Assembly: GCA_963790475.1 (NCBI GenBank)
Contig: CAWBOS010000010.1
Location: 352,001 to 416,000 of the forward strand
Length of the DNA stretch: 64,000 bases
Direction of reading: 5' to 3'
Source of the DNA: an uncultured delta proteobacterium
Lineage (GTDB): Bacteria; Desulfobacterota; RBG-13-43-22
The position numbers and the translations under genes are program-made. Below, in pieces: positions 1-43,121 of the stretch; position 1 is the first letter of the stretch; each line of letters begins with the position of its first letter. Below the pieces are notes generated by a model. That model saw only the letters and a list, made by a program, of their open reading frames with translations, made no database searches and was not told where the DNA came from.

Positions 1-1279
1 CGGAGCAGCGGGAATAGACCGGATGACGGTAGAGGAGTTCGAAAAGCGAGAAAGAGAGCTTTTGCAGCTCATCGGCGAGAAGCTGAAAGCGGGCACCTAC
101 CGTTTCAAACCTGCCAGAAGAGTTCTGATTCCCAAGGAAGGCAGTAATAAGATGCGTCCCCTTGGGATACCGGTGGTCATGGATCGAATAATCAGCCAGA
201 GTATCAATTTGGTATTTGAGGGGTTGTTCGACCCGGCTTTTACGAAGTCCAATTTTGGATTTCGTCGAGGCCACAGCCAGCATCAGGCGATTAGACATGT
301 TCAGGGGATAGTGGAAGATGGATATGAATGGGCGGCATCGATAGACTTGAAGAGTTTCTTTGATGAAATCCCGCATGAACTGATATTAACACTTATACGG
401 CGGAAGATAGCCGATGAGAGGCTGGTAACGCTGATTGCAAGAGCGTTAAGGGCCGGTATCGTTATTGATGGAGAATATCAGGAAACACCCAAGGGATGTC
501 CACAAGGATCTCCGCTCTCCCCGATGCTATCGAACATTGTTTTGAATGAACTGGACTGGGAATTGGAAAAGAGAGGGCACCGGTACGGTCGATGGGCTGA
601 TGACTTCCTGATTTTACTTAAATCAGAAAGAGCGGCTGAACGGATCATGGAGGGAATAACGGCGTACCTGGAAGGGAAGCTGAGACTTCCGGTTAACCGG
701 AAAAAGAGCCAAGTAGCTCCGATTAAAGACATTCCTTTCCTGGGGTTTCAAATACTCAGGGGGAAAATCCGAGTCAGCGACAAGGCCCGGGTTAAATTTA
801 AGAATAGGATACGAGAACTAACCCGGAGAAACAATCCCTTATCTATGAACCAGGTGATCCAGGAACTCAATGAATACTTACGAGGGTGGATAGCCTACTT
901 TCGGGTCCAAGAGTTTAGCAAACCATTAGTGGAACTCGATGGCTGGATTCGGAGTCGGCTCAGATCCATGCAACTAAAGAAATGGAAAAACCCCCGCAAA
1001 TTTCAAAGGATGCTAAACCGGTCCGACTATACAGGCCGGGAAACGAACCGAGTCTGGGTCAAGATGAACAAATGGCAATCGGTCAATCGACGGGAGGTTC
1101 GTTGTGTTATGAATCTCCAATGGTTCAGAAGGCAAAGGTTGACCTTTCTAGGTGACTTCATCCAGAGGCAACTACCTCTTGAACTGAAATTCAGTCGCTA
1201 ATCGAAGAGCGGCTTACCTGGCCGGTACGAGCCGTTCTGTTGGGAGGGGGTAGGCCTTCTCGGCTACCTCCTACCAGAT
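1..1279 (+). mobile_element. Group II intron, 3' part (5' end outside window)
   Basis: RT ORF is followed by a domain V-like hairpin AGAGCGGCTTACCTGGCCGGTACGAGCCGTTCT (1206-1238, AGC triad, short stem). A domain VI-like hairpin (about 1242-1275) has a bulged A at 1273, 7 nt from the AT end at 1279. Confidence 0.9.
2..1201 (+). CDS. ltrA: Group II intron reverse transcriptase/maturase (5'-truncated by window), no endonuclease domain
   Basis: Frame open from base 2 (GAAGIDRMT = RT0). Motifs IPK..RPLGIP, GFRRG, DLKSFFD, GCPQGSPLSP, RWADD, FLGF; X domain LNEYLRGWIAYF. Confidence 0.93.
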   Translation, partial: GAAGIDRMTVEEFEKRERELLQLIGEKLKAGTYRFKPARRVLIPKEGSNKMRPLGIPVVMDRIISQSINLVFEGLFDPAFTKSNFGFRRGHSQHQAIRHVQGIVEDGYEWAASIDLKSFFDEIPHELILTLIRRKIADERLVTLIARALRAGIVIDGEYQETPKGCPQGSPLSPMLSNIVLNELDWELEKRGHRYGRWADDFLILLKSERAAERIMEGITAYLEGKLRLPVNRKKSQVAPIKDIPFLGFQILRGKIRVSDKARVKFKNRIRELTRRNNPLSMNQVIQELNEYLRGWIAYFRVQEFSKPLVELDGWIRSRLRSMQLKKWKNPRKFQRMLNRSDYTGRETNRVWVKMNKWQSVNRREVRCVMNLQWFRRQRLTFLGDFIQRQLPLELKFSR

Positions 1280-1381
1280 TCTTAATTTTTGGGACTGGCA
1301 AATTAAAACATTAGTAGGTGTACTCGCAGATTTTCGATAGGAACACATTTTGAAATATCCGTGAGGGAGGATTTTGTTTAG

Positions 1382-2067
1382 TTGATTTAGAAACCCCCGC
1401 CCTAAGGGCGGGGTCATGTGGACTGGCTATGCCGGTCCCGAATGGGCTTGGCTGAAAGCCCACCCACTGCTATTTTTTCCATCGAGTTGTTGCCGCAACA
1501 TCGAAAGAAAGGAGATAGCAGTGAGTAGATTCCGAAAATTATCACATACCATATGGCATTGTCAGTATCATATTGTCTGGGTTCCGAAATATCGCTATCA
1601 GATATTGGCTGGGAACATCGGGGAAACGATGGCCAGCGGGATCCAAGCGATTTGCGGGTATGCGGGTTGTGAAGTTAACGAGTTGAATGTTCAAAAGGAT
1701 CATATTCATCTGGTAGCCATGGTTCCGCCCGAAGTATCGATATCGGACTTGATGGGGCGGGTCAAGGGTCAGACATCGATGAAAATGTTTAACCAGTATC
1801 GGCAGTTGCGGAAGAAGCCGTATTGGGGTAATCATTTTTGGACCCCGGGGTATTGTGTGGATACCGTTGGAATGGATGAGGAACTGATCCGGAAGTATGT
1901 CCGGTATCAAGAGGAAAAAGAAAAACAGTTCGAACAATTGCACTTGAATTTGTAGATCATCCATAACGCGGCACAACTCGGAAGCCCTGCCTCCTCAGGG
2001 GGCAGGGCCATTGCCCCCCTATGGGGGGCCCAGTTAAAGCCACGCCCTATGGGCGTGGATTATTTAC
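1382..2067 (+). mobile_element. IS200/IS605-family element A (tnpA only)
   Basis: Left hairpin CCCCGCCC-TAA-GGGCGGGG preceded by guide AAAC, predicting target TTAG (1378-1381). Right hairpin CCACGCCC-TAT-GGGCGTGG preceded by AAAG, predicting end TTAC (2064-2067). Ends inferred with the IS608 guide/cleavage pairing rule. Confidence 0.85.
1521..1955 (+). CDS. tnpA: Y1 HUH transposase TnpA
   Basis: YHIVWVPKYR, DHIH (HUH), KGQTS, FWTPGY, YVRYQ. GTG start at 1521 after AAGGAG. Confidence 0.95.
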   Translation: MSRFRKLSHTIWHCQYHIVWVPKYRYQILAGNIGETMASGIQAICGYAGCEVNELNVQKDHIHLVAMVPPEVSISDLMGRVKGQTSMKMFNQYRQLRKKPYWGNHFWTPGYCVDTVGMDEELIRKYVRYQEEKEKQFEQLHLNL

Positions 2068-2219
2068 TCCTTCCTGAAAGTTTCGCATGATAAGTTCCAC
2101 AAAAAAACACCTATTCCCCGATGGAGCTTCATATGACCCTGACCTAAATCATAAGTCCAACCCCCGCCTCATCATAATTTTTAGTTGCAAATTTTTCTCT
2201 TTAAAGCGATGATTATTGC

Positions 2220-3092
2220 TTGGAGAGTCCAATGGCTATTTTAATCGACAGAAGAAACCATCCAAGATACCCGATTAACCTTCCTGTTTTTATCTTCTAC
2301 GCAGAAAAGAGGGCTGTGGCCCACACTCTGGATGTGGGACTGGGAGGAATGAAAATATATACTGACAAGGTTTTCCCTTCCCGACGAGGTTTTTTATTTC
2401 ATTTAGTTCTGCAACGAAAAACCATTTGGGTTACGGGACGATTCATTTTCAAACAAACCCAGCCCGAATTGGTGAATTTCTCCTGTATTAAGTTTGAAGA
2501 TATTACGAAAGAATGCTTTCTTGATCTGAAGGAATTTCTCTCGCACTCGCAAAATTTATTGAAGAAAGAGTCCCTTGATATGGAGGTTCGAATCAGGGAA
2601 AAGGAGACTGCATTGGCGAAAGCCAATGAATTGCTGAAGGTTGAAACTGAAAGAAGGAAGAGAGAGGAGCAGGTTATCAAGGAGGTGGGGGAGCGACTTG
2701 GGTATTTATTATCGCTATTTTCGGATGATCGAGAAAAAAGAATAAGAATGACCGTCCGAGGGCTTGATGACCGTATTGAGGCCTTGCTATTGGCGATCAC
2801 TAATGGGCTTAAAAATCTTTACCTCCTTTTGAAGGAGGGGAATGTTGCTGGCCAGATCTCTTTTGAGCAGATCATTTTCAGCATTCAAAACAATTATAAA
2901 GAGATCCGGAGGGTTCTGGAGAACTTAGGGCCATCCATTTTGGATGAGCTCGGAATATTGGGAACTATTGGCTTGCAATGCCAGGAGCTTCAGAATATTT
3001 ATTATGGAATCCAGAACGAAAAGGAAGAGGATGTCCTGGAAGATACCGGGTCCGGGAAAATTCTATATATACAAGGCCGAAAAGCCACATGA
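2220..3092 (+). CDS. PilZ domain fused to a degenerate HisKA_3-like helical region; no ATPase domain
   Basis: RRNHPRY and DVGLGG PilZ motifs, then a coiled coil. RGLDD replaces RELHD; LGPSILDELG resembles LRPSxLDDLG. Confidence 0.7.
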   Translation: MESPMAILIDRRNHPRYPINLPVFIFYAEKRAVAHTLDVGLGGMKIYTDKVFPSRRGFLFHLVLQRKTIWVTGRFIFKQTQPELVNFSCIKFEDITKECFLDLKEFLSHSQNLLKKESLDMEVRIREKETALAKANELLKVETERRKREEQVIKEVGERLGYLLSLFSDDREKRIRMTVRGLDDRIEALLLAITNGLKNLYLLLKEGNVAGQISFEQIIFSIQNNYKEIRRVLENLGPSILDELGILGTIGLQCQELQNIYYGIQNEKEEDVLEDTGSGKILYIQGRKAT

Positions 3093-3179
3093 CTACTTTC
3101 TGAACGCCTAAAGCCTCATCTTTTTAAATAATAAAAGACTTTAAGTGGTAGTCAACGCAAGTGGTTTAATTTTCATAAT

Positions 3180-3811
3180 TTCTTTTAGGTAAACCCCCGG
3201 CTCGGCCGGGGGACTCCCAGAGTTTGACAATTCCGGGAGAATAAGAAAGCCTCCAACCTGTGAACCGCTCAAGTTTACAGAGGAGGAGGCTTTCCATGAA
3301 AAAGGAACAAAGTTTAACCCATACGAAGTGGGAATGCAAATACCATATTGTCTGGATACCGAAGTATCGGAAGAAAAAATTATACGGGCAAGTACGAAAA
3401 TATTTAGGGGCGCTATTCAAGGACTTGGCCATCCAGCGTGAATGTACGATTATCGAAGGGCATTTACAACCGGACCATGTCCACATTTTAATCTCGATAC
3501 CTCCGAAATATGCTGTTTCGCAAGTAGTTGGGTATCTCAAAGGCAAAAGCGCCATTCAAGTAGCCCGAGCCTATTTGGGGCGAAGAAAGAATTTCAGTGG
3601 CCAGAATTTTTGGGCTCGGGGTTATTTTGTTTCAACCGTGGGCAAAGACGAAGATGAAACACGGTTATATATAAAGACTCAAGAAAAGGAAGATCAACGT
3701 CTCGATCAACTCCTTTTGTTCGATGAAGAACCACCTTCAGGTGGTCAATAAATAATCCGCTTTGAGCGGTTCACAATTTCAAGCCTCCGGCTTTGCCGGA
3801 GGTCTGGTGAC
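3180..3811 (+). mobile_element. IS200/IS605-family element B, copy 1 (tnpA only)
   Basis: Near-identical to 42350-42981. Shared sequence starts at target TAAT (3176-3179) and ends at TGAC. Terminal hairpins CCCCCGGC..GCCGGGGG and CCTCCGGC..GCCGGAGG have guides TAAA and CAAG. Confidence 0.95.
3296..3751 (+). CDS. tnpA: Y1 HUH transposase TnpA
   Basis: YHIVWIPKYR, DHVH, KGKS, FWARGYFVSTVG, YIKTQ. ATG after GGAGG. Confidence 0.95.
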   Translation: MKKEQSLTHTKWECKYHIVWIPKYRKKKLYGQVRKYLGALFKDLAIQRECTIIEGHLQPDHVHILISIPPKYAVSQVVGYLKGKSAIQVARAYLGRRKNFSGQNFWARGYFVSTVGKDEDETRLYIKTQEKEDQRLDQLLLFDEEPPSGGQ

Positions 3812-3999
3812 TTTTTACCAATCAAACGGTATGAATTTTATAGGAAACTAATAAATATAGGACGCAATAAAATTTAACTAGGCGGGATTTTGGGTGAGCC
3901 TGATAACCTCTCGGCTATCTAAATCTCCCAGCACTAATCCGAACCAAAGTTTGGCTATCATATTTTTTTAAGAGGAACTGATCTATTTAGGAGGACGTT

Positions 4000-5439
4000 A
4001 TGGAAAAACACGACGAAGGGATGGAGAAGCTTTTAACTATTGAAAAAACCATAACCGGAATGATTGAGTTACACAGTCTGGTTGTTGAATTGAAGGAATT
4101 GGAATCTCAGCAACAGAGGATCATTGAAGACCTTCAGAGGAATGTTAACAAATACAGGACCTTTCTCCAAAATATTCCTATAAGACTCTTTATCAAGAAT
4201 ATGGATCTATCCTATATATACTGCAATCAGATTTATGCGGATGACCTAAAAAAACAACCCGAAGAAATTGCCGGAAACACGGATCGGGACTTCTTCCCGT
4301 CCGATGTGGCTGTAAAATTCATAGGAGACGACAAAAGGGTTCTCGAATCCGGTGAGATTAAAAATATCGAAGACAAATATCTCATAGGGGGTCAGGAGTC
4401 TATCGTTCATATGGTCAAATCTCCTCTCCGGGATGAAAACGGGAACATTGTTGGCTTGATGGGCATATTCTGGGATATCACAGAAGAGAAACACAAAGAA
4501 GAAGAAGCCATGAAATCCCATGCTCTTCTCGAAGGTCTTTTATCCAACCGAACAGATGAACTGGAAAAAACAACCCAGCGACTTCAATTGGAAAATTCAG
4601 AACGCCAACAAGTGGAGGAGAGGCTCAGACAAACGGATGAAATCCGTCAGACCATTTTTGAAGGGACGGGTGCAGCCCTCGCCGTCCTCAGTGAAGAGGA
4701 CATGATCATACTGCAGGCCAACAATAAACTTGAGGAAGTCCTGGGAATCTATCGGGAAGAGATGGAAAACAAGAAATCCCTGTGGGAATTCATCGCCGAT
4801 GGTGATTTAGAAAGAATAAAGGAGCAGTGTCTGATCGTCAGATCGGGTTCGGATGCCAATCCCGGGGGCAGGGAATATCGGTTCGTTGACCAGCAAGGGA
4901 ATGGGAAAGTCATCTTTGTGACCATGGCCCTGATTCCGGGTACCAGGAGAATTACGGCCTCTTTTCTCGATGTCACTGAACGCAACCATATGCAGAAGGC
5001 CCTCCAGCGGTCGGAAGAAAAACATCGATGGTTGGTCGAAAAGGCCCCTGTGGCCATCGGCGTGATTCAGAAGGGTGTATTTAAATTTATCAACCTCAAG
5101 GTCATTGAGATATTCGGATATTCACAAGAGGAGCTCGCTTCACGGCCAGTGTTGGAATTCATTCATACCGATGACAGGGGGATGGACAAACTCCTGTTCA
5201 AAGAATCAAACGATGGGGAACTTCCTCACCTCTTTTTCTTCAAGATCGTCCACAAGGATGGAACTATCCGATGGGTTGAGGATAGGGTGGACTTGATTCA
5301 TTGGGAAGGAAGCCCAGCGACCATAAATTTTTTCACTGATATCACTTTACGAAAGCAGGCCGAGGACGAATTGCTAAGTTCCATCCAGCCCTTTCGCGCC
5401 CTGATTGAAAAGGCACAAAGGGTCATGACTACTGAGTAA
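4000..5439 (+). CDS. Multi-PAS sensory protein (about 3 PAS domains plus coiled coils) with no output domain
   Basis: PAS/PAC ends WDITEEK, DVTERN, DITLRKQAE. Strong RBS AGGAGG. Stops about 25 aa after the last PAS. Confidence 0.85.
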   Translation: MEKHDEGMEKLLTIEKTITGMIELHSLVVELKELESQQQRIIEDLQRNVNKYRTFLQNIPIRLFIKNMDLSYIYCNQIYADDLKKQPEEIAGNTDRDFFPSDVAVKFIGDDKRVLESGEIKNIEDKYLIGGQESIVHMVKSPLRDENGNIVGLMGIFWDITEEKHKEEEAMKSHALLEGLLSNRTDELEKTTQRLQLENSERQQVEERLRQTDEIRQTIFEGTGAALAVLSEEDMIILQANNKLEEVLGIYREEMENKKSLWEFIADGDLERIKEQCLIVRSGSDANPGGREYRFVDQQGNGKVIFVTMALIPGTRRITASFLDVTERNHMQKALQRSEEKHRWLVEKAPVAIGVIQKGVFKFINLKVIEIFGYSQEELASRPVLEFIHTDDRGMDKLLFKESNDGELPHLFFFKIVHKDGTIRWVEDRVDLIHWEGSPATINFFTDITLRKQAEDELLSSIQPFRALIEKAQRVMTTE

Positions 5440-42349: not shown

Positions 42350-42981
42350 TTCTTTTAGGTAAACCCCCGGCTCTGCCGGGGGACTCCCAGAGTTTGACAA
42401 TTCCGGGAGAATAAGAAAGCCTCCAACCTGTGAACCGCTCAAGTTTACAGAGGAGGAGGCTTTCCATGAAAAACGAACAAAGTTTAACCCATACGAAGTG
42501 GGAATGCAAATACCATATTGTCTGGATACCGAAGTATCGGAAGAAAAAATTATACGGGCAAGTACGAAAATATTTAGGGGCGCTATTCAAGGACTTGGCC
42601 ATCCAGCGTGAATGTACGATTATCGAAGGGCATTTACAACCGGACCATGTCCACATTTTAATCTCGATACCTCCGAAATATGCTGTTTCGCAAGTAGTTG
42701 GGTATCTCAAAGGCAAAAGCGCCATTCAAGTAGCCCGAGCCTATTTGGGGCGAAGAAAGAATTTCAGTGGCCAGAATTTTTGGGCTCGGGGTTATTTTGT
42801 TTCAACCGTGGGCAAAGATGAAGATGAAACACGGTTATATATAAAGACTCAAGAAAAGGAAGATCAACGTCTCGATCAACTCCTTTTGTTCGATGAAGAA
42901 CCACCTTCAGGTGGTCAATAAATAATCCGCTTTGAGCGGTTCACAATTTCAAGCCTCCGGCTTTGCCGGAGGTCTGGTGAC
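42350..42981 (+). mobile_element. IS200/IS605-family element B, copy 2
   Basis: Near-identical to 3180-3811. Inserted 3' of TAAT (42346-42349), ends TGAC, no TSD. Confidence 0.95.
42466..42921 (+). CDS. tnpA: Y1 HUH transposase TnpA
   Basis: Same protein as 3296-3751 except K3N. Confidence 0.95.
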   Translation: MKNEQSLTHTKWECKYHIVWIPKYRKKKLYGQVRKYLGALFKDLAIQRECTIIEGHLQPDHVHILISIPPKYAVSQVVGYLKGKSAIQVARAYLGRRKNFSGQNFWARGYFVSTVGKDEDETRLYIKTQEKEDQRLDQLLLFDEEPPSGGQ

Positions 42982-43121
42982 TCCCACCTTTGAATGGGAT
43001 CCAACTGGTAATAGACGGCATACCGGATCTGGCCTTCTTCAGCGAATCCAGGACTTCCCCCGGTATTCCCGACAACTGCGCTGGGGACCCCGATACCAAC
43101 GAAAATCTTTCCGAAATTGCC

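Follow-up and report, generated by a model that had tools for sequence, protein, structure and literature searches.

Complementarity between the leader hairpin and the post-stop segment of IS200-group insertion sequences

Few insertion sequences are as small or as widespread as IS200, which is notorious for hardly ever moving. We describe here a complementarity between the untranslated leader of two IS200-group elements and the segment that follows their stop codon, called the trailer. Both elements lie in a 64,000-nucleotide (nt) stretch of DNA from an uncultured delta proteobacterium (contig CAWBOS010000010.1, positions 352,001 to 416,000), which we call the window; their features are on the plus strand unless stated otherwise. 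Positions 1377-3811 hold two complete insertion sequences, elements A and B, with an open reading frame (ORF) containing a PilZ domain (2220-3092) between them. Element A (1377..2067) carries tnpA only; its genome copies share the sequence from TTTAG... to ...TTATTTAC and differ in their flanks, and its left limit is uncertain by about 5 nt, the conserved target sequence being inseparable from the element. Its tnpA (1521..1955) runs from GTG 1521 to TAG 1955 and encodes a Y1 transposase of 144 amino acids (PF01797, E 1.5e-38). Element B (3184..3811), whose limits come from flank comparison and whose right end is GGTGAC, has a tnpA (3296..3751) running from ATG 3296 to TAA 3751 and encoding a Y1 transposase of 151 amino acids (PF01797, E 6.2e-37). 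The source genome contains 6 full copies of A at 100% identity plus a partial one, and 3 copies of B at 100% identity, together with one 73% relative and several short derivatives that lack tnpA; one of these copies of B is a second one inside the window, at 42355-42982, with identical leader and trailer segments.

Taken by themselves, both are ordinary IS200-group insertion sequences. Each is 628-690 base pairs (bp) long, with a single family ORF that encodes a Y1 (HUH) transposase of about 140-150 amino acids, and no tnpB; the subterminal end hairpins are alike in direct orientation (83% in A, 76% in B), with no terminal inverted repeats; and minimum free energy (MFE) folds show a leader stem-loop in which the Shine-Dalgarno sequence is hidden. 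Junctions were read in inserted copies only: among the copies and derivatives of B, each left flank has TTCT or TTCA as its last letters, with unrelated right flanks, and A copies share TTTAG on the left. Rfam covariance models, run against 1200-4100 on both strands, gave no match at E <=1. An earlier note on this DNA, made from the letters alone, had called the two elements unrelated. This holds for their untranslated regions (UTRs), which cannot be aligned, but the transposases are 35% identical and both belong to PF01797: as far as sequence comparison goes, A and B are distant members of one family.

The leader hairpin of A (1465..1523), found by MFE folds and repeat search, sequesters the Shine-Dalgarno sequence AGGAG (1510-1514) and the GTG start codon (1521-1523); its apical stem GTTG/CAAC closes the loop TTGCCG (1490-1495), and its lower stem reaches the GTG. 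That of B (3245..3294; repeat search, folds) has a lower stem GAAAGCCTCC/GGAGGCTTTC, an upper stem CTGTGAAC/GTTTACAG and the loop CGCTCAA, and its Shine-Dalgarno sequence GGAGG (3285-3289) is buried in the lower stem, where 3245-3254 pairs with 3285-3294. When the leader is folded alone, the probability that the Shine-Dalgarno sequence is unpaired is 0.00 in B and 0.36 in A.

The segment TGTGAACCGCTCAA of the B leader (3259..3272), which consists of the upper 5' arm and the loop, is the exact reverse complement, over 14 nt, of the trailer segment TTGAGCGGTTCACA (3762..3775). In A, the equivalent leader segment CGAGTTGTTGCCGC (1483..1496) forms 13 pairs with the trailer segment GCGGCACAACTCG (1968..1980), which a single bulged T divides into 8 + 5. 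The leader partner, made up of the loop and the upper arm, occupies -38..-24 relative to the start codon in A and B alike, and the trailer partner begins 11-13 nt past the stop; the complementarity ends upstream of the Shine-Dalgarno sequence, by 12 nt in B and 13 nt in A. By our own arithmetic, chance would produce a perfect inverted match of 14 nt about 7e-4 times in 631 nt, and the duplex energy, compared with 300 dinucleotide shuffles of the trailer, yields p = 0.003 for B and p = 0.007 for A. The earlier note had reported the perfect match in B, the one-bulge pairing in A and the burial of the ribosome-binding site (RBS) in both hairpins, and all three are confirmed, the first both by direct reading and by repeat search. 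Its account of the geometry needs one amendment: the upper 5' arm and terminal loop do pair, but the lower stem, which is what actually sequesters the Shine-Dalgarno sequence, is not included.

Relatives of both transposases were gathered from 400 sampled genomes of the same phylum (twice), species-representative genomes (80 loci, many phyla), metagenome contigs (80 loci) and ten named plasmid-borne elements. From the 230 places found by tblastn, 61 were set aside (12 were partial, 11 had short flanks, 23 had an ORF >165 amino acids, 14 lacked a start or stop, and 1 contained N), and the 169 remaining reduce to 129 elements, 67 of A type and 62 of B type, when flank identity is limited to 80%. 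One candidate, L068, with an ORF of 452 amino acids, was rejected as an informative relative, being a truncated or fused element without a right end. Leaders (-60..-9) were compared with the first 80 nt after the stop for exact Watson-Crick runs. A complementary run of at least 9 nt is present in 74 of the 129 non-redundant elements, and one of at least 11 nt in 45 of them. Since B-type elements share one motif, a non-cognate control within the set would be useless, and the null was instead obtained by setting the leaders of one family against the trailers of the other: runs of at least 9 nt occur in 0.7% of 3000 such pairs. The same-strand orientation control yields 1/129. Position is constrained as well: when the best complement of the leader apex is sought over the ORF plus 200 nt, 92 of 122 elements have it no more than 90 nt past the stop, a stretch that represents 14% of the length searched, and of the 74 elements with a run of at least 9 nt, 71 have a leader part whose start is at -41..-30.

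The paired sequences are wholly different between lineages, for example TGAGGAAAGCCCCTAAA in L051, GGGGCTTGACGGC in L046, TGAGTTGTCCCAA in L060 and TGAAAGGTGC in L061; further distinct versions are a match of about 20 nt in L065 and GTCAGCCAAC in a Staphylococcus aureus plasmid element. In E. faecium and L058, the leader partner is the loop with the 3' arm, instead of the 5' arm. When 22 sequence-distinct elements are compared singly with shuffles, 10 reach p <=0.013, 5 lie at p = 0.03-0.08, and 7 are above 0.1: C. perfringens IS200S, L042, L122, E. coli IS200C, L091, and two copies of a Salmonella/E. fergusonii plasmid element. Just upstream of the window (G000:C10:350482-351119) stands a decayed B relative with 73% DNA identity; its tnpA frame is broken, both of its end hairpins are kept, and it retains the 14-nt leader/trailer match with a one-base shift. 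The pairing is encountered in Thermodesulfobacteriota, Acidobacteriota, cyanobacteria and Firmicutes, and as far as the classical IS200 of enterobacteria.

Covariation in the A family was evaluated, for a helix of 11 pairs, on a MAFFT whole-element alignment; of the 67 A-type elements, it includes the 61 that share at least 58% identity with A. Paired cells make up 85.2% of this alignment's helix, a share that drops to 37-54% if the 3' partner is displaced by 1-3 columns. Nine of the 11 pairs have changed on both sides, in 34 cells, and none of 500 shuffles reaches 9/11; over five measures, the observed values are attained in 0/500 shuffles for four and in 1/500 for the fifth. The exchanges are mostly at loop positions, with TTGCC/GGCAA, TCCCC/GGGGA, TTCCC/GGGAA, GCCCC/GGGGC and TCTGC/GCAGA among the matched versions. 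The B-type motif is far more conserved, a 10-nt core being present on both sides in 42 of 62 elements; here 19 double-changed cells are observed, against 7.8±1.9 when trailers are shuffled among elements (0/1000), and the matched variants are GTGAGCC/GGCTCAC, GTGGACC/GGTCCAC, TCTGAACC/GGTTCAGA and CGCTTAAAG/CTTTAAGCG.

The mismatches that remain bear on the strand on which the structure forms. Both G·T and A·C cells arise from Watson-Crick pairs by transitions. At the eight pairs of the A family that are undisturbed by the register of the bulge, G·T or T·G cells number 43, and A·C or C·A cells 7: this asymmetry speaks for a single-stranded structure on the sense strand in the A family, and against one on the antisense strand. 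A protein-binding site formed by an inverted repeat in duplex DNA, which would not distinguish the two kinds of cells, is rejected for this family on the same count. The sense strand is that of the mRNA; it is also, we presume, the strand active in transposition, when the IS608 paradigm is applied to the conserved target on the left flank.

In the classical elements, Salmonella IS200F, E. coli IS200C and Yersinia IS1541A, the upper 5' arm and terminal loop, TGCGG|TCTGGCA, form 12-13 consecutive Watson-Crick or G·U pairs, 3-4 of them G·U, with a segment at +15..+29 past the stop. Shuffled trailers equal this pairing in 17/2000 cases for IS200F, 22/2000 for IS200C and 3/2000 for IS1541A, and the duplex energy of IS1541A is marginal (p = 0.043). 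A 12-13-bp duplex with 3-4 wobbles suits RNA better: it is plausible as RNA and weak as DNA. A search for more members of the classical clade, in 400 sampled genomes of the class of G401, returned no match at E <=1e-55, which is uninformative either way.

Because the complementarity recurs with different sequences in the same geometry, and because it co-varies, we consider it to be selected. The earlier note had suggested as much from the two elements, and had looked to covariation among relatives for a check; recurrence, null controls and cell counts, in which the double changes exceed every shuffle in two families, all agree with it. On these comparisons, leader/trailer pairing is a general, selected feature of a large part of the IS200 group, and the module probably extends to the IS200 archetype.

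The trailer is also a neighbour of the right end. Element A has a left-end subterminal hairpin at 1395..1413 (CCCCGCCCT A AGGGCGGGG; repeat search), an 83% direct repeat of its right-end hairpin, and a series of right-end hairpins at 1984..2058 (1984-2008, 2013-2029 and 2040-2058; repeat search, fold), the last of which resembles the left-end one. Element B has a left-end subterminal hairpin at 3194..3212, a 76% direct repeat of the right-end one and seen in the fold; a second left-end hairpin at 3214..3239, CTCCC...GGGAG with TTGACA in its loop, which is retained in relatives and in tnpA-less derivatives; and a right-end subterminal hairpin at 3784..3802 (repeat search, fold). Between stop codon and right end of B lies a small trailer hairpin, CCGC-TTTGA-GCGG (3757..3769), seen in the fold and in relatives: B-type relatives keep it as (G)CCGC-TTTGA-GCGG(C), and it is to its loop, 3' arm and 3' flank that the leader is complementary. 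Four tnpA-less derivatives of B, of the type of miniature inverted-repeat or palindrome-associated transposable elements (MITE/PATE) and 225-333 bp long, are found at G000:C1:91680-92012, C10:476958-477241, C15:6442-6731 and C13:12954-13178; all four retain the left-end hairpin, the second one with its TTGACA loop, and the right-end hairpin.

Three further observations concern this part of B. The segment AGAGTTTGACAATT (3219-3232), downstream of the left-end hairpin, agrees at 79% in direct orientation with AGCGGTTCACAATT (3765-3778), upstream of the right-end one, so that the B trailer also resembles the conserved left-end part that contains TTGACA. Read on the minus strand, the small trailer hairpin at 3757-3769 is followed by a T-rich run and has a terminator-like score, and it could stop transcription coming into the element from its right side; the GCCGC/GCGGC clade does not conserve the T-run. 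Pairing of the Shine-Dalgarno sequence with the 5' arm of the B right-end hairpin was considered as a general feature and rejected: it has no equivalent in A, and the order of the strands forbids both helices when the linkers are so short.

The explanation of the pairing that we favour, and hold tentatively, is a contact between the 5'UTR and the 3'UTR of the tnpA transcript that modulates tnpA expression without opening the Shine-Dalgarno stem. Its partners would be the terminal loop and one arm, usually the 5' one, of the upper leader hairpin, and a post-stop segment of 9-17 nt that is followed, after about 10 nt, by the next hairpin towards the right end. The contact would start between loops, as in kissing complexes, and could extend to a duplex; it would occupy the site used by the antisense RNA art200 in Salmonella IS200. 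We infer that the molecule is RNA and that the action is in cis; as to its direction, the contact would modulate, and probably damp or gate, the translation of the transposase or the fate of its mRNA, the stem that hides the Shine-Dalgarno sequence not being unzipped.

Several observations weigh against this explanation. Energy models do not predict the contact: as RNA, with nearest-neighbour parameters, forcing the pairing costs +6.7 kcal/mol in B and +7.8 kcal/mol in A, with an equilibrium probability <0.001, and whole-element equilibrium folding of A and B does not form the long-range helix. Leader and trailer folded together keep the local hairpin, the addition of the trailer changing nothing in the model, and RNAalifold on the 61-sequence A-type alignment returns a near-invariant local apical stem and no long-range helix. 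Nearest-neighbour models cannot, however, represent loop-loop contacts, and the complementary loops (6 nt and G/C-rich in A, UCAA(A) with UUUGA in B) suggest contacts of precisely this kissing type. An exact run of at least 9 nt is missing from 55 of the 129 elements, and the pairing is clearly absent from L091, L122, L042 and the Salmonella/E. fergusonii plasmid element (p = 0.16-0.93). The B family has no wobble bias, with 15 G·T against 17 A·C, and the duplex energy of IS200C is not significant (p = 0.23). Lastly, the covariation cells come from related sequences and not from independent events, so that the counts overstate independence; for this reason, the variety of unrelated sequence versions is the stronger argument.

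The remaining contrary points concern the right end, and they lend weight to an alternative, the second idea of the earlier note, that we judge unlikely and yet take seriously, namely that leader and trailer pair as single-stranded DNA on the active top strand, closing the tnpA region into a loop and linking the ends. The distance from the trailer to the next perfect downstream hairpin is tight (median gap 9.5 nt, interquartile range 8-12, in 68 of the 74 run-bearing elements), and that to the stop codon is variable (interquartile range 9-42): the trailer is anchored to the hairpin, not to the stop. Moreover, in three of the four derivatives there is still a small hairpin 5' of the right-end one, with TTTGA or TTTAA as its loop and a stem changed in a compensatory manner (GCCCC/GGGGC), which points to a role of the trailer region that does not depend on translation. 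Judged by the fixed gap and the small hairpin, the trailer has the look of a right-end component at the level of DNA as well, and the region seems to have a role of its own there. The geometry would bring both ends of the element to one end of the duplex, and the sense-strand bias fits equally well, if the sense strand is the active one as we have presumed. Forcing the pairing is also less costly with DNA parameters, at +4.6 kcal/mol in B and +5.3 kcal/mol in A, but the equilibrium probability is <0.002 even so. The derivatives, on the other hand, have no leader-type partner, their longest interior complement being 6-8 nt against 14 nt in B, and the long-range pairing is therefore not part of the minimal ends retained there. 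In addition, the leader partner is always the apex of the RBS hairpin, a feature whose known role is at the RNA level, and wobbles are frequent in the A family and amount to 3-4 in 12-13 bp in IS200F, IS200C and IS1541A, which is weak as DNA.

If the contact is an RNA contact, as we prefer, it might also be made in trans: an RNA derived from the 3' end, with trailer and right-end hairpin, would act on the leaders of all copies, or a processed leader RNA would act on trailers or on single-stranded right-end DNA. The elements are indeed multi-copy, with 6 A and 3 B, the trailer has the polarity of an art200-type antisense RNA across the leader apex, and in Salmonella the 5'UTR hairpin of tnpA accumulates as stable processed RNAs of about 90-110 nt (PMC5435999; this and the other PMC articles are cited from partial text). 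However, a 3' fragment has no known promoter or processing site, and local concentration favours contact in cis; we regard action in trans as improbable.

No more probable is the toehold switch that the earlier note had put forward, in which the trailer, present in full-length mRNA only, invades the leader hairpin, frees the Shine-Dalgarno sequence and turns translation on. The complementarity does begin in the accessible loop and continue into the 5' arm, and pairing would free the 3' strand of the upper stem, which adjoins the Shine-Dalgarno sequence. Yet the lower stem that holds this sequence is left uncovered: when the pairing is forced in the models, the B Shine-Dalgarno sequence is still held in a 10-bp lower stem and that of A is partly open, so that trigger pairing does not free the RBS, and the energy cost given above leaves no drive for the invasion. 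In E. faecium and L058 the partner is the loop with the 3' arm, and in IS200 itself the pairing of art200 at this site represses translation (PMC4513863). The opening of the RBS is not supported as an explanation. More doubtful still, processed leader RNA might pair, in addition to the mRNA trailer, with the single-stranded top-strand DNA of the right end, beside the hairpin bound by TnpA, and gate 'peel and paste' transposition by contact between RNA and DNA; were this true, the tnpA-only IS200 would gain an RNA-guided layer of its own, distinct from the TnpB omega-RNA of its relatives. That there is no function at all, the match being due to chance or to complementarity inherited without selection, would agree with the elements that lack a run and with the silence of the energy models, but it is hardly credible in view of the cross-family null and orientation controls, the positional enrichment after the stop, the double changes above every shuffle in two families, and at least 10 sequence-distinct versions at p <=0.013.

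Two neighbours of the elements deserve mention. The ORF between them (2220-3092, 290 amino acids) has an N-terminal PilZ domain (E 9.8e-7) and a remainder that is coiled-coil-like. Positions 1-1300 of the window hold a group II intron, with a reverse transcriptase and maturase ORF at 23-1201 (PF00078, PF08388); there are two copies in the genome, and the places to which this observation refers also include G000:C10:350482-351239, upstream of the window, and G000:C10:894087-894209. Both intron copies (GTGCGCC...) start exactly at the 3' end of an IS200-group element, one after the GGTGAC of the decayed B relative and the other after the TTATTTAC of an A copy, and from these junctions the intron seems to home to a site directly past the right-end hairpins.

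The known brakes on IS200 are a weak promoter, a left-end terminator, the leader hairpin, art200 and Hfq, all of them mapped on constructs without the 3' end of the element. A co-varying contact between leader apex and right end would add a further layer of control, and would join the ends of the element. One short sequence of the IS200 family can then be doubly constrained, as a part of a DNA end and as an RNA partner, and this bears on how ends are read, on how tnpA-less derivatives are annotated, and on the use of the IS200 leader as a platform for riboregulators.

Among known systems, synthetic toehold switches resemble these elements in that the RBS is concealed by a hairpin and a complementary trigger begins at an unpaired region; their trigger unwinds the RBS stem, whereas here the complementarity stops above the stem and, in the model, the B Shine-Dalgarno sequence stays paired. 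The 3'UTR of icaR reportedly pairs with the Shine-Dalgarno region itself, a pairing that is not found in A and B. In Staphylococcus aureus, the icaR mRNA controls its translation by pairing its own 3'UTR with its 5'UTR (PMC3868564): the likeness is base-pairing between 3'UTR and 5'UTR in one mRNA, and the difference is that the partner in IS200 is the apex of a hairpin, the Shine-Dalgarno sequence being uncovered. In the multicopy inhibition of IS10 by RNA-IN and RNA-OUT, loop-initiated RNA pairing limits the translation of the transposase (as summarised in PMC4513863), but RNA-OUT is a separate, trans-acting antisense transcript that covers the start region. At the DNA level, the ends of IS608 and ISDra2 combine subterminal hairpins with 4-nt pairing between guide and cleavage site, local to each end (PMC8266576). 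Complementarity of DNA with DNA within a single strand, on which this family partly works, is a point of likeness, as is the place of the trailer just 5' of a hairpin on the right-end side, like the IS608 guide; the pairing described here differs in that it spans 9-17 nt and joins the interior of the left end to that of the right end.

The parallel with art200 is one of target. In Salmonella IS200, art200 (STnc490; Ellis et al. 2015) is directed at the tnpA leader hairpin, at its terminal loop and upper stem; its pairing, with a proposed kissing start between terminal loops, spreads over about the upper half of the stem, as far as about -25, and prevents the binding of 30S in a manner independent of the lower stem, with the Shine-Dalgarno sequence uncovered (PMC4513863). 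The experiments used tnpA 1-173 RNA and fusions of the first 323 nt, in which the trailer is hence absent (PMC4513863). The trailer here is complementary to the identical target, leader apex and upper stem, as it also is in IS200F, IS200C and IS1541A. It differs in origin: art200 comes from the strand opposite to the leader, whereas the trailer belongs to the sense strand, past the stop and some 490 nt downstream, and is not an opposite-strand regulator. As a separate observation, early tnpA of element A contains a promoter-like site on the minus strand, from 1565 to 1538 (CTGACA, 16 nt, TG-GATAAT), which points across the start codon and leader, and whose position matches that of the art200 promoter in Salmonella IS200; the scan found 4 such sites against 4.1 expected in shuffles, and the hexamers lie within conserved codons, so that the site is a lead only. 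The earlier note was not aware of any description of the long-range pairing, and none was found by full-text literature search or in the partial texts of PMC4513863, PMC5435999, PMC7290912 and PMC8266576, a coverage outside which lie a 2015 family review and a 1999 paper on the leader structure, and an earlier mention is possible. Set beside these systems, what appears to be new is a conserved link between the two ends of the element.

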